Positions 31,777-63,369 of a stretch of DNA of 64,000 nt are shown here, piece after piece (position 1 is the first letter of the stretch; the number at the start of each line of letters is the position of its first letter). The DNA is taken from assembly GCA_016432325.1 (NCBI GenBank), contig CP066684.1, positions 576,001 through 640,000 on the forward strand, read 5' to 3'. Origin of the DNA: Candidatus Aenigmatarchaeota archaeon. Lineage in GTDB: Archaea > Aenigmatarchaeota > Aenigmatarchaeia > PWEA01 > JACQIF01. The translations under genes were made by a program, and so were the position numbers. The notes under the pieces are model-generated. The model made no database searches. It worked only from the letters and a program-made list of their open reading frames with translations, and was not told the origin of the DNA.

Positions 31777-32649
31777 ATGGGACTCGAGGACGTACTCAAG
31801 TTCGCGTGGGAAACCATGTGGCACCACCCGAAGACGCTCCTGCTCGGAGTGATAAACTGGATACCCGCCGTCTTCGCCTTGTCATATATCGCATTCCTGC
31901 TCTCGGAGCTTACGCTTCTCGATCTCGGATCCATATACAGCGTTGGCGGGATGATCGCGCTGATCTGGAAACTCGCTCCGCTGATAGCGGGTTATACCGT
32001 CCTGTCGTGGGCCGCGTCCGCGTTCTCGGCCGCCGCGTACGCAAGCCTCACGCAGCAGTTCGCGCACCACAAGAAACCTTCGGTCTCGGATGCTTTCTAT
32101 ACAGGGAAGCGGCTCGTCTTGCCGATGATGTGGCTGCAGTTCCTGACAGGCTTGGTGGTCGCTCTGCCTATCATTGTCGCTCTCGCCGTAAGCCTCTTGG
32201 TCATTGGAGGCGCCGGCGCGGCAACCGCCGGGTCCGGTTCCATAACGGCGCTTATCGCAGGAATGGGTCTCTTCGCGTCCTTGCTAATCGTCGCGTTCGC
32301 TGTCACGTTCTACCTGTCAATCAAGACGTGGCTCGCGCCTGTTGCGCTCGTCGTCGAGAACAGGCGCGGGTTCGACGCGGTGAAACGCAGCTTCGAGCTT
32401 ACAAAAGGCAAGTTCTGGCACATCCTGCTCGTGCTGATCGTCATGGGGGTTGTCAATAACGTCGTATTCCAGATTGCCGCTTCCGTGTTCCAGGTGATGG
32501 TTCTCGGCTCTTTGACAGCGGCGCTCGCCGTCTATTTCTCATTCGTCCTGCTCGTCATGCTGCCGTTCGGAATGTGGGCAATGACCGCTCCTGCCGCGCT
32601 GTACTTCGAGTACGGCCTCGGCAAGACGCCGACGAAGGTCAGGAAGTGA
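31777..32649 (+). CDS. integral membrane protein (GPDPase membrane-domain-like)
   Basis: VVENRRGFDAVKRSFELTKGKFW motif; 6 TMs. Confidence 0.75.
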   Translation: MGLEDVLKFAWETMWHHPKTLLLGVINWIPAVFALSYIAFLLSELTLLDLGSIYSVGGMIALIWKLAPLIAGYTVLSWAASAFSAAAYASLTQQFAHHKKPSVSDAFYTGKRLVLPMMWLQFLTGLVVALPIIVALAVSLLVIGGAGAATAGSGSITALIAGMGLFASLLIVAFAVTFYLSIKTWLAPVALVVENRRGFDAVKRSFELTKGKFWHILLVLIVMGVVNNVVFQIAASVFQVMVLGSLTAALAVYFSFVLLVMLPFGMWAMTAPAALYFEYGLGKTPTKVRK

Positions 32650-32661
32650 GTTCGCGCGTTC

Positions 32662-34125
32662 CTAAACCAATATTTCGCCCAGCTTCTCCGCCAGCGCGTC
32701 CACAGGGACGCGCTCCTGCTTGCCTGTATCGCGGTCTCTTATCGTAACGGTCTTCTTCTCAAGGGTCTCGTGGTCCACTGTTATGCAGAAGGGCGTGCCT
32801 GACTCGTCTTGTCGTGCATAACGGCGGCCGATCGAGCCCGAATCGTCGTAGAATATGCGGAACCGTTTTGAAAGCCTCTTGAACAGCACCCAAGCTTCCT
32901 TGTCAAGACCGTCCTTGTTCACCAGCGGGAATATCGCCGCGTCGTACGGGGCGACGCGCTTCGGCAGTGCGAGAATCGTCCGGCCATCGCGTTCTGCGTA
33001 CGCGAGCTCGAGCAGCATATACAGGTTGCGGTCAACGCCGAACGTAATCTCAATCACGTGCGGCACGAAACGCCTGTTGTCATAAAACACTTCCTGATCC
33101 TTCCCGCTCGTGCGCGCGTGGCCCTTCAGGTCGTGGTCCGTGCGGTAGTGGACGGCTCCGACCTCGGAAAAACCTCCGAAGGACGCGACGTCCACTTCCG
33201 CGTCCCAGTGGAACTTGTTATAGAAGGCGCGCTCCTCTGCCGCGAGTTCGTAGAAACGGAACTTCTCCGGCGGTACGCCAAGCACATCAAGATAGAATTT
33301 CTGCAGCTGTGCCATGCAATGGAGATAGAGTTTCGGTATGGCGTGCTTCTCGTTGGCCTGCGCGCACGTGACGTCCTTGACGTGCGCACGGTCGCTCGCG
33401 AACAGAAGACGCAGCTTGTATGTTTTTATCGAGTCCCAGTCTTCGTGCGTGTCGAGCGCCGTGGGGTCGAAGAATATCTGAAGCTCGGCCTGCGTGAACT
33501 CGCGCATCCTGTAGACGCCTTGGCGCGGCGAAATCTCGTTGCGGAACGCGCGGCCCACGACCGCCAGCCCGAGCGGAAGCTTCTTGCGCGTAATCTCGAA
33601 AGTGCGCGCAAAGTTCACGTAAGGAACCTGAGCCGTCTCGGGCCGAAGGAAAGCGCGCGTCTTGGTCTGCACGCCCACTGTCACAGGAAACATGAGGTTC
33701 AGGCGCGCGGCGTTCGCGAACGGGCCGCCGCACTTCGGGCATTTCATCTTGTGCTTCGCTATCAGCGCGTCATACTCGCGCTCGCTCAGCCCTTCAAACT
33801 TTTCTTTAAGATGCTCCTGCAGAAGATGGTCCGCGCGCTCGGACGAGTCGCACTTCTTGCACGTCACCACAGGATCATCGAAGTGTTCCAGGTGCCCAGA
33901 CGCGCGGAACACGTCCTCGGGCATTATCTCGGCGCCTGAAATCTCGTGGAAGTTCTGGTGGAGACCCAGGAAGTAGTCGAGCCACGCGCTCTCGAGCCTG
34001 CGTTTCATGGAGGCGCCCAGAACGCCGTAGTCATAGAACCCGGCCAAGCCGCCGTAAAGCTCCGAGGACTGGACCACGAAACCTCTTCGCGTTGCGAGTT
34101 CCATCACCTTGTCTGGCGCGCCCAT
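32662..34125 (-). CDS. glyS: glycyl-tRNA synthetase (alpha2 type)
   Basis: YDYGVLG, LRPETAQ, FRNEISPR, IGRRYARQDE. Confidence 0.95.
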   Translation of the reverse strand: MGAPDKVMELATRRGFVVQSSELYGGLAGFYDYGVLGASMKRRLESAWLDYFLGLHQNFHEISGAEIMPEDVFRASGHLEHFDDPVVTCKKCDSSERADHLLQEHLKEKFEGLSEREYDALIAKHKMKCPKCGGPFANAARLNLMFPVTVGVQTKTRAFLRPETAQVPYVNFARTFEITRKKLPLGLAVVGRAFRNEISPRQGVYRMREFTQAELQIFFDPTALDTHEDWDSIKTYKLRLLFASDRAHVKDVTCAQANEKHAIPKLYLHCMAQLQKFYLDVLGVPPEKFRFYELAAEERAFYNKFHWDAEVDVASFGGFSEVGAVHYRTDHDLKGHARTSGKDQEVFYDNRRFVPHVIEITFGVDRNLYMLLELAYAERDGRTILALPKRVAPYDAAIFPLVNKDGLDKEAWVLFKRLSKRFRIFYDDSGSIGRRYARQDESGTPFCITVDHETLEKKTVTIRDRDTGKQERVPVDALAEKLGEILV

Positions 34126-60813: not shown

Positions 60814-61549
60814 AATTTCAAGACTAAAGTTTTGAAATAAAACTGACTCTGCAAGGGTCAGTGTTCACCGCACTTACCATAACGCAAGTTGTGGTAGGGC
60901 TTGGAAAGAAAGTTTCGAGATTTTCTGGTAAACAGAAAACTTGAAAACGGATTTTCAAGACAATTCCAATAGAAAGTGTGCAGTTAACTCCCAATCGAAG
61001 TTCTCGTACTGTTGATGAAATATCGTAGGACCTACTTTGAGACAGAGCGTTGTTAGGGATAACAGACGCTGGGAACATACGTTCGATTGAAATAATTCTG
61101 GTTGATCCCGCCAGAGGTCACTGCTATCTGGATCCGATTAAGACATGCTAGCCGAGTGCGAAAGCACGGCAGACGGCTCAGTAACACGTAGTCAACCTGC
61201 CCTCAGGTAGGGGATAACCCCGCGAAAGTGGGACTAACACCCTATGGGGAAAAGATACTGGAATGTTCTTTTCCTGAAAGGCAACGCCTGAGGATGGGAC
61301 TGCGGCGGATTAGGCTGTTGTTGGGGTAAAGGCCCAACAAACCTATAATCCGTACGGGCGTTGAGAGACGTAGCCCGGAGATGGGCTCTGAGACAAGAGC
61401 CCAGGCCCTACGGGGCGCAGCAGTCGCGAAACCTTTACAATGGCTTCACGGCCGATAGGGGGATCCAGAGTGAGTGCGCAATGCGTACTCTTTTGCCGAG
61501 TCTAAACAGCTCGGAGAATAAGGGGTGGGCAATACGAGTGCCAGCCGCC

Positions 61550-61593
61550 ATCTTGCGTAGGACGGAAACTTTTCCGCCCTTGCGGGACGGAAA
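61550..61593 (+). other. 16S intron at 526/527 (44 nt)
   Basis: interrupts GCCAGCCGCC|ACGGTAA; hairpin with relaxed BHB GCCG/CGGA. Confidence 0.8.
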
Positions 61594-61626
61594 ACGGTAA
61601 TACTCGAGCCCCGAGTGGTGACCACG

Positions 61627-61657
<31 letters not shown>

Positions 61658-61978
61658 GGACAAGTTCCTAGTGAAATCCTGCGTTAAACGCGGGGCGTGC
61701 TGGGAAGACTGTCCGGCTTGGGACCGGGAGACGTTAGCAGTACTCCAGGGGTAAGGGTAAAATCTTATCATCCTTGGAGGACTACCTGTGGCGAAGGCGG
61801 CTAACGAGAACGGCTCCGACGGTGAGGGACGAAAGCGTGGGGAGCAAATGGGATTAGATACCCCAGTAGTCCACGCTGTAAACGATGCCCCCTTGATGTC
61901 GCGTCTTCTTCGGGAAGACGCGGTGTCGTAGAGTAGTTGTTAAGGGGGCCGCCTGGGGAGTACGGCCGCAAGGTTGAA

Positions 61979-62021
61979 ACTCAGCAGAACGTTCGTTCTG
62001 AACGTTCGTTGCGAGCAACGA
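61979..62021 (+). other. 16S intron at 908/909 (43 nt)
   Basis: canonical BHB GTTG-AA|A ... CAAC-GA|A. Confidence 0.9.
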
Positions 62022-62340
62022 ACTTAAGGGAATTGGCGGGGGAGCACTTCAAGGGGTGGAGGCTGCGGTTCAATTGGATTCAACGCCAGACATTTTACCA
62101 GGGGTGACAGCAGGATGAAGGTCAGTCTGAAGGGCTTACCTGACGCGCTGAGAGGAGTTGCATGGCCATCGTCAGCTCGTACCGTGAGGCGTGCGCTTAA
62201 GTGCGTTAACGAGCGAGACCCACGCCCTCTGTTGCTATCTTGTCCTCCGGGATGAGAGCACTCTGAGGGGACCGCCGGCGATAAGTCGGAGGAAGGAGTG
62301 GGCGACGGTAGGTCCGTATGGCCCGAATCTCCTGGGCTAC

Positions 62341-62862
62341 ACCGAGTCCAGGCTAGCGAGGAAGAGCAAATGTTTTGGAACGAAAGTTTCAGGATACGTT
62401 GAACCGTTTTTGATTGTGCTAACGGCATGCTACTTACGAAAGTAATAGTATATCCGTCACGCACAAACCTTTACATGAACCCTGATTTAGCATATCTGAT
62501 AGGTCTCATCGGAGGCGACGGTTCGCTGACTTACAAGAAAGGAAGCGAATACCGTGTCTCAGTCGTTGACGAGTGCTTGGAATTTCATGAGCACGTCGTC
62601 AAACCTACAATGGATGCGACTTTCAACAAAGCCGCGTACGAATATCCGCGCGTCGCTCTGCAGGTTGCAAACAGTGGTATCAGAAACGAATTGGTCGAAC
62701 TTCTGAAGAGGTTTGGCATCGCACCGAGCGTTTGGAAGTACAAGCAAATGTTCGGTTTGCAAATAATCGGTTTCGATAAGGTTAGGCTGTATTCAGAGAA
62801 TGTCGGTTTTCGGCATCCCTCGAAACAGAAACGGTTGCTCGAGCTGCTTGGCTTGGGGCCTA
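62341..62862 (+). mobile_element. 16S intron at 1226/1227 (522 nt) carrying a homing endonuclease ORF
   Basis: BHB GGCT-AC|A ... GGCC-TA|A; splicing restores GGGCTACACGCGG. Confidence 0.9.
62475..62862 (+). CDS. LAGLIDADG homing endonuclease, probably degenerate; no stop inside the linear intron
   Basis: LAYLIGLIGGDGSL motif; LLKRFGI; GFRHPSKQKRL; second LAGLIDADG helix not seen. Confidence 0.8.
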
Positions 62863-63116
62863 ACGCGGCCTACAATGACCCGGACAAAGAGTTGCCACGC
62901 CGAAAGGCGGAGCCAATCTCTAAACCGGGCCTTAGTTCGGATTGAGGGTTGAAACTCACCCTCATGAAGCCGGAATCCCTAGTAAGCGGGTGTCACTATC
63001 ACTCGCTGAATACGACCCTGCTCCTTGCACACACCGCCCGTCAAGCCATGCGAGTGTTCCCTTGATGAGGCTTGGGTTATTGCCCAGGACGAATCGAGGG
63101 GACGCGAGCGGGGCTA

Positions 63117-63224
63117 ATCTCAAGGAGTTCATCTCAGAACAAGATGATTAAACTGGCTTGACTCTGACAAAATATGAGGAGTCTTGGAGGTGGAATGATT
63201 GCTTGAGAGCTCCTGGGAGCCTAG
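63117..63224 (+). other. 16S intron between A1492 and A1493 (108 nt)
   Basis: BHB GGGC-TA|A ... GCCT-AG|A; splicing restores GGGCTAAGTCGTAAC. Confidence 0.88.
63144..63198 (+). ncRNA. putative intron-encoded box C/D guide RNA
   Basis: C ATGATTA, D' CTGA, C' ATGAGGA, D ATGA; D' guide TGGCTTGAC complementary to 16S 63040-63048. Confidence 0.65.
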
Positions 63225-63369
63225 AGTCGTAACAAGGTAGCCCTACGGGAACGTGGGGCTGGATCACCTCCTATATCTTTTCTCTGTCGTTACAGACGGA
63301 GATTGGATTATAACCGGTGTACAAGCGCCAACAATTCGCATACTGCCAGTCGAGTAGTTTTTTATCGAA

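Follow-up and report, generated by a model that had tools for sequence, protein, structure and literature searches.

The closest described relative of the RNA reported here is sRNA13 (sR13) of Nanoarchaeum equitans, a guide encoded by a free-standing gene between NEQ365 and NEQ366 and represented by 45,100 RNA-seq reads (Randau 2012, PMC3491384). PLEXY puts the target of its D′ guide at CGUC(Am)AGCC, which corresponds to A1408 of 16S rRNA (PMC3491384), one of the few sites predicted in helix 44 (Dennis 2015, PMC4644070). MALDI-MS and RiboMeth-seq of N. equitans 16S rRNA have shown stoichiometric Am1408 (and Am1409) and Am1534; Am1408/Am1409 were assigned to the D′ guide of sR13 and Am1534 to its D guide (Seistrup 2017, PMC5389701). 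For N. equitans, which is without RsmA/Dim1, the free-standing sR13 has been proposed to serve as an assembly checkpoint (Seistrup, PMC5389701). BHB introns in 16S rRNA genes have been described in Thermoproteales, at loci from position 374 to 1391 and with none at 1492, 1499, 1513 or 1520 (Jay and Inskeep 2015, PMC4496867). Those introns either encode homing endonucleases or have no recognisable content, and none is reported to contain a guide RNA (PMC4496867).

Here we analyze a BHB intron in the 16S rRNA gene at the end of a 64-kb stretch of archaeal DNA (called the window, by which we mean the whole stretch of 64,000 nucleotides), the body of which resembles sR13. The two RNAs have the same box order. 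In both, a D′ guide (UGGCUUGACU followed by CUGA) with a spacer of 13 nt is aimed at A1408, and a D guide with the core GGAGGUG is aimed at the anti-Shine-Dalgarno tail. Neither genome has a detectable RsmA/Dim1 gene. The two differ in boxes C and D (AUGAUGU/CUGA in sR13, AUGAUUA/AUGA in the window intron) and, by one base, in the register of the D arm, which is directed at A1534 in N. equitans and is predicted to face C1535 in the window. Unlike the free-standing sR13 gene, the guide in the window forms the body of a BHB intron within its target 16S rRNA.

Results

The 16S rRNA gene, host and target of the guide, spans window positions 61095–63272 on the + strand (Rfam RF01959, 1213 bits, full length; all window features below are on this strand) and carries several insertions. 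Alignment to SSU models shows helix 44 to be enlarged by 108 nt. A preliminary description had placed a BHB intron exactly between the equivalents of A1492 (63116) and A1493 (63225), and we arrive at the same boundaries: excision of the 108 nt from 63117 to 63224 restores the mature sequence GGGGCUA/AGUCGUAACAAGG (the slash marks the joint) as found in intron-less relatives, the spliced reading at the A1492/A1493 joint being given also as GGGGCUA/AGUCGUAAC, and the BHB motif is kept in ten introns. Its central helix is formed in the predicted fold by the exonic strand GGGC (63111–63114) and the intronic strand GCCU (63219–63222), the latter supported by homologous introns as well. This helix is nearly invariant, with 4/4 pairs in 10/10 homologous introns and a single G-C to G-U change in one of them. 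It is flanked on opposite strands by two bulges of 3 nt, UA/A at 63115–63117, with the 5′ splice site after 63116 (fold and homologous introns), and AG/A at 63223–63225, with the 3′ splice site after 63224 (fold), so that the cut follows the second bulge base on either side. The outer exon helix is weak, with 2 bp offset by one. Within the intron, helix h′ pairs 63118–63127 with 63210–63218 in the MFE fold, its 3′ strand again being supported by homologous introns, and compensatory changes are found in 5 of 12 pairs across the ten introns at 1492/1493.

The window genome, a single contig of 875 kb scored as 90% complete, encodes the splicing endonuclease EndA (PF01974, 3.4e-28) and the ligase RtcB (PF01139, 3.6e-160). 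None of the public sequencing runs matched over half of the sampled words; in the RNA runs, only conserved rRNA segments of other organisms were covered, and the joints found all begin in helix 44 of other taxa. Three further insertions are present in the same 16S gene: 45 nt in the 530-loop region (61549–61593), a short repeat-rich segment near position 900 (about 61985–62015), and a 522-nt intron with a LAGLIDADG-type ORF (62341–62862).

The interior of the 108-nt intron reads as a box C/D RNA with two guides. The terminal stem on the C side of the K-turn consists of CAA (63140–63142) paired with UUG (63199–63201). Inside it follow box C AUGAUUA (ATGATTA in the DNA; 63144–63150), a D′ guide of 13 nt (63151–63163), box D′ CUGA (63164–63167), a D′-C′ loop of 6 nt, box C′ AUGAGGA (63174–63180), a D guide of 14 nt (63181–63194), and box D AUGA (ATGA in the DNA; 63195–63198), which is supported by the family parse and by the sequence itself. 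On re-reading the sequence, all box and spacer coordinates of the preliminary description proved exact. The K-turn retains the tandem G-A/A-G pairs and the U-U pair, and its G-C pair is replaced by U-A, formed between position 6 of box C (U) and position 1 of box D (A). In the K-loop, position 6 of box C′ (G) pairs with position 1 of box D′ (C), and U-U is replaced by G-U.

Nine nucleotides of the D′ guide, TGGCTTGAC (63154–63162), are exactly complementary to GTCAAGCCA (63040–63048; 9/9 Watson-Crick pairs), which is the 5′ strand of helix 44 at 16S positions 1405–1413. The fifth base from box D′, 63159, faces A1408 (63043), the predicted site of 2′-O-methylation; both the perfect complement and the prediction for A1408 had been put forward before, and both agree with the sequence. 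In the D guide, GGAGGUGG (63186–63193) is antisense to the anti-Shine-Dalgarno tail (16S 1532–1539, 63264–63271): GGAGGTGG and TCACCTCC form 8 bp with one G-U, and 63190, the fifth base from box D, faces C1535 (63267), again in line with the earlier prediction. The further suggestion that GGAGGTGG might be only a relic Shine-Dalgarno sequence with an ATG does not hold, since in the family described below this segment is conserved as the D guide, and Am1534 of N. equitans has been assigned to this arm.

In the 64-kb window, the 9-mer GTCAAGCCA has just two occurrences, the target itself and the antisense copy within the intron. When both strands of the whole 875-kb genome were searched with a relaxed C/D regular expression, the intron was the sole match. 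An Rfam scan of the intron alone with E up to 10 gave only noise and no C/D family, a null result that says little because the archaeal sRNA families in Rfam are species-specific.

We located homologues by scanning a single genome of each species for the pattern, which yielded 55 loci with about 50 true copies. Nearly all of these are in Aenigmatarchaeota MAGs, and one is in N. equitans Kin4-M. The window genome belongs to the same class as these MAGs and is therefore itself an Aenigmatarchaeote. Because this N. equitans copy is sR13, the window intron is the orthologue of an expressed guide with measured target modifications. The claim that the intron encodes a C/D guide aimed at A1408 thus gains a homologue whose D′ guide has been assigned to a measured Am1408. 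A metagenome scan added 65 further distinct copies in the same host classes, which brings the distinct homologues to about 125. A family model trained on 48 members, including N. equitans sR13, finds a single match in the window genome, the intron (36.8 bits, E = 1e-9).

For family statistics we parsed 61 distinct members and left out two mis-parsed ones (L052 and L108; n = 59). Spacers of 12/12 nt are found in 39/59 members, box D′ is CUGA in 57/59, and box C′ is RUGAUGA in 47/59, with AUGAUGA as the mode. The K-turn pair between position 6 of box C and position 1 of box D is Watson-Crick in 52/59 members, as A-U (43), G-C (6), or U-A (3, among them the window copy), and the U-A state is found in other lineages as well (L121 and L123). 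The exchange of G-C for U-A, which had been noted in the window copy as compensatory, is thus one instance of a pair that covaries across the family. Stems flanking the C and D boxes have a mean length of 4.6 bp, compared with 1.9 ± 0.18 bp when the 3′ flanks are shuffled among members; 0 of 1000 shuffles reached as high a value.

A comparison of homologous 1492/1493 introns for conserved boxes and guide covariation had been put forward in the preliminary description. We find the boxes family-wide and guide-target covariation at positions 1410 and 1405. Where the target has A1410, the guide has U in 5/5 such 16S-hosted members, and G1410 is faced by a wobbling guide U in three members. At position 1405, the guide of G032 has U opposite A1405, and G004 and G013 have A opposite A1405, a mismatch at the dispensable second position. 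Five tRNA-Ser-hosted members of one family (L116, L120, L121, L123, and L133; f19) keep the A1408 arm and have a different D guide, GUGAUAGGCGKA.

Judged by their sequences, homologues of the same guide are housed in at least four 16S intron sites and in one tRNA intron. With sites assigned by the canonical BHB rule, the 16S hosts lie at 1492/1493 (the window and about 23 other copies), 1499/1500 (about 22 copies), 1513/1514 (about 44 copies), and 1520/1521 (L041); more than 40 copies occupy an anticodon-loop intron of tRNA-Ser(UGA), and the N. equitans guide is free-standing. All four 16S sites are located between the two targets, 1405–1413 and 1532–1539, and three different 16S sites are used within one genus (g44). 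A DNA search of 60 related genomes found most of them to be without an insertion at 1492/1493. Relatives from the same order carry the guide in tRNA-Ser (G004, G013, G017, G019, and G006). In the window genome, the 16S intron holds the only copy, and tRNA-Ser(UGA) has an anticodon-loop intron of roughly 56 nt without a guide. This tRNA gene, which we located by a short blastn search with the exons of a relative, lies outside the window at genome positions of about 32480–32697 on the minus strand and contains three introns. ARAGORN and the Rfam tRNA model return only 8–12 tRNAs in the window genome, where multiple introns seem to interrupt most tRNA genes.

Two genomes of the same class (G054 and G060) have an intron of nearly identical inner sequence at a different site. 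Placement of this intron at 1498/1499 was ruled out by the BHB rule and by intron-less relatives reading AAGUCGCCACAAGG, which put it at 1499/1500. U1498 and A1499 of the decoding region are almost universal. The mature 16S rRNA of many Aenigmatarchaeota reads AAGUCGCCACAAGG, with C1498 and C1499 (L042, L056, L062, L066, L072, and other f22-type loci).

Other introns were observed around these sites. G031 (L006) and G032 (L029) have mini-introns of 30–33 nt at 1492/1493, with a good BHB and too short for a guide; these may be either emptied hosts or hosts still unfilled. At about 1500/1501, a few bases from guide-intron sites, L039 (G008), L040 (G051), and L036 (G003) have ORF-bearing introns of ∼800 nt. 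In the window genome, an ORF-less intron of the 23S rRNA gene at genome positions of about 645843–646017, 5.8 kb past the window end, has the 12-mer ACTCTGACAAAA (box D′ plus loop) in common with the 16S intron. Its terminal stem measures 11 bp, and it contains two CTGA motifs without a clear box C; it may be a second, degenerate guide-intron.

All three sRNP proteins are encoded in the window genome: L7Ae (PF01248, 2.6e-30), Nop5 (PF01798, 2.3e-47), and fibrillarin (PF01269, 1.7e-83). The methyltransferase RsmA/Dim1 is near-universal. We found no match to it (KsgA, PF00398) in the window genome, with matches in 14/14 control genomes, and tblastn searches of the window genome with three RsmA proteins of the same class gave a best E of only 0.36. 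Although RsmA/Dim1 was not found, helix 45 retains an intact GGAA loop with A1518/A1519 (63243–63246). Across 151 genomes of the class, about 79 have a full-length RsmA, which is absent from whole families (f1, f4, f14, f22, f29, and others). Guide matches are found in 45/72 RsmA-minus and in 18/79 RsmA-plus genomes. The double guide with an anti-SD arm is found in families f1, f14, f22, and f29, all of them without full-length RsmA, G099 being the exception. These counts are suggestive only, since the genomes are related and the model was trained on the double-guide form.

This distribution bears on an explanation that would add to a methylation guide rather than replace it, namely that the RNA acts mainly in cis as an assembly checkpoint or chaperone and takes the place of the RsmA/Dim1 checkpoint. 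In the pre-rRNA its arms would keep the 5′ strand of helix 44 and the 3′ tail occupied, and formation of the decoding site would have to await the action of the sRNP and the excision of the intron. A cis-acting role that delays folding is plausible because the intron lies between the targets, as all four 16S host sites do, because such a checkpoint has been proposed for free-standing sR13 in an organism likewise without RsmA/Dim1 (Seistrup, PMC5389701), and because the RsmA gene is missing here. The association of the anti-SD double guide with families devoid of full-length RsmA is in line with it. Yet many relatives have the guide in a tRNA-Ser intron or a free gene, so that placement in cis is not necessary, and guides with the D′ arm are also found in RsmA-plus genomes (G006, G089, G099, f8, and f17). 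The correlation itself stems from a few related families whose members are not independent, and the double-guide training of the model renders it less sensitive to diverged copies in RsmA-plus families. We hold a primarily non-methylating function to be possible and propose it only tentatively. The coupling of splicing to modification or chaperoning, suggested in the preliminary description, fits both the checkpoint proposed for sR13 and the lack of an RsmA/Dim1 gene here, and is still an inference.

A wider version of this idea is that lineages without RsmA/Dim1 have built sR13 into their pre-16S rRNA as a mobile, self-targeting guide-intron, which would provide a checkpoint in cis before A1492 and A1493 are joined. 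Helix 44 would be clamped at its 5′ strand by one arm and the anti-SD by the other, the sRNP would methylate and release both, and only then would EndA and the ligase join the exons. Repeated moves among BHB introns (the four 16S sites and tRNA-Ser) would have preserved the same two targets throughout. We regard this combined scenario as doubtful.

The window copy departs from the family norm in ways that raise the question of whether it is a decaying relic, an intron still spliced around a guide that no longer assembles or methylates. Its spacers measure 13 and 14 nt (family mode 12/12; 13/12 in N. equitans sR13), three of its four boxes are non-consensus, including C′ AUGAGGA and D AUGA, and its box-adjacent terminal stem is only 3 bp long. 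In archaeal sRNPs, activity declines when the spacing deviates from 12 nt, most of all at the second guide. We nevertheless consider decay very unlikely: the copy is the only one in the genome, its 9-nt D′ antisense is perfect, its change at C6:D1 is compensated and recurs in L121 and L123, AUGAGGA is found as a box in other family members, the D′ spacer of N. equitans sR13 also has 13 nt, and the 875-kb genome retains the genes for all three sRNP proteins. The proposal that boxes and antisense are due to chance, or that GGAGGTG and ATG are the ribosome-binding site and start codon left from a lost intron ORF, can draw on the commonness of UGA-containing motifs and on the Shine-Dalgarno-like word GGAGGTG, but is refuted by the comparative data, since box order and spacing are common to about 125 distinct homologues including the expressed N. 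equitans sRNA, the generic C/D pattern occurs nowhere else in the genome, the intron has no ORF, and the GGAGGUG arm is fixed 12 nt from C′ and adjoins box D family-wide.

Discussion

We conclude, with a probability of roughly 85%, that the segment 63117–63224 is a BHB intron with a double-guide C/D sRNA as its body, the orthologue of sR13 and its sole copy in this genome, directing methylation of A1408 and C1535. The anatomy and homology of the element are observed, as are the covariation and the protein genes. Expression, circularization, L7Ae binding, splicing, methylation in this organism, and the choice between action in cis and in trans are inferred. Points against our conclusion, as far as sequence alone can weigh them, are the off-norm spacers, boxes, and stem, the D-arm duplex of only 8 bp with one G-U, the +5 position one base off A1534, and the lack of RNA data.

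From the predicted structure and the encoded proteins we envisage the following pathway. EndA would cut at both bulges, and RtcB would join the exons to form the A1492-A1493 linkage and probably also close the intron into a 108-nt circle. L7Ae would bind the C/D K-turn and the C′/D′ K-loop, and Nop5 and fibrillarin would complete the sRNP. Annealing of the D′ arm to 16S 1405–1413 is predicted to lead to 2′-O-methylation of A1408, and annealing of the D arm to the anti-SD tail at 1532–1539 to methylation of C1535.

We know of no function assigned so far to the ORF-less rRNA introns of archaea; its guide RNA gives the present one a likely job. Its retention can be explained because it carries the sole copy of a conserved decoding-site guide, such that loss of the intron would mean loss of the guide. 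With one guide in six different genomic contexts, three of which occur in a single genus, the mobility of a C/D RNA and of BHB introns can be traced directly. Considered along with the missing RsmA/Dim1, the intron makes it possible to test across the phylum whether an RNA guide can stand in for the RsmA checkpoint, as has been proposed in print.

The guide RNA and its targets are already known, and what is new is the host. In the full-text literature, which does not cover subscription journals, we found no report of a guide within an rRNA intron of its own target, and none of multiple alternative host introns or of a tRNA-Ser host for this guide. Like the 16S introns of Thermoproteales, some of which are also short and ORF-less, the window intron has a BHB at its junctions and lies in conserved rRNA; it differs from them in its site, 1492/1493, which is outside the reported loci, and in carrying a guide RNA.

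With the C/D guides known from introns of archaeal tRNA-Trp it shares a BHB intron with a double-guide C/D body, two targets that flank the intron in the host RNA, and, by inference, release by the tRNA splicing endonuclease. In contrast to these, its host is an rRNA, its guide occurs in more than one kind of host, and its targets lie 69–77 nt upstream and 40–47 nt downstream of the intron, whereas in the tRNA case they are in the same stem-loop. The locus also offers a prokaryotic parallel to the intron-hosted C/D snoRNAs of eukaryotes, in that a guide for rRNA methylation comes from an excised intron and is co-produced with the host transcript. The eukaryotic RNAs reside in spliceosomal introns of mRNA or lncRNA genes and are trimmed by exonucleases, whereas in the window it is the target rRNA that serves as host, and the guide would be released by the BHB endonuclease, probably as a circle.
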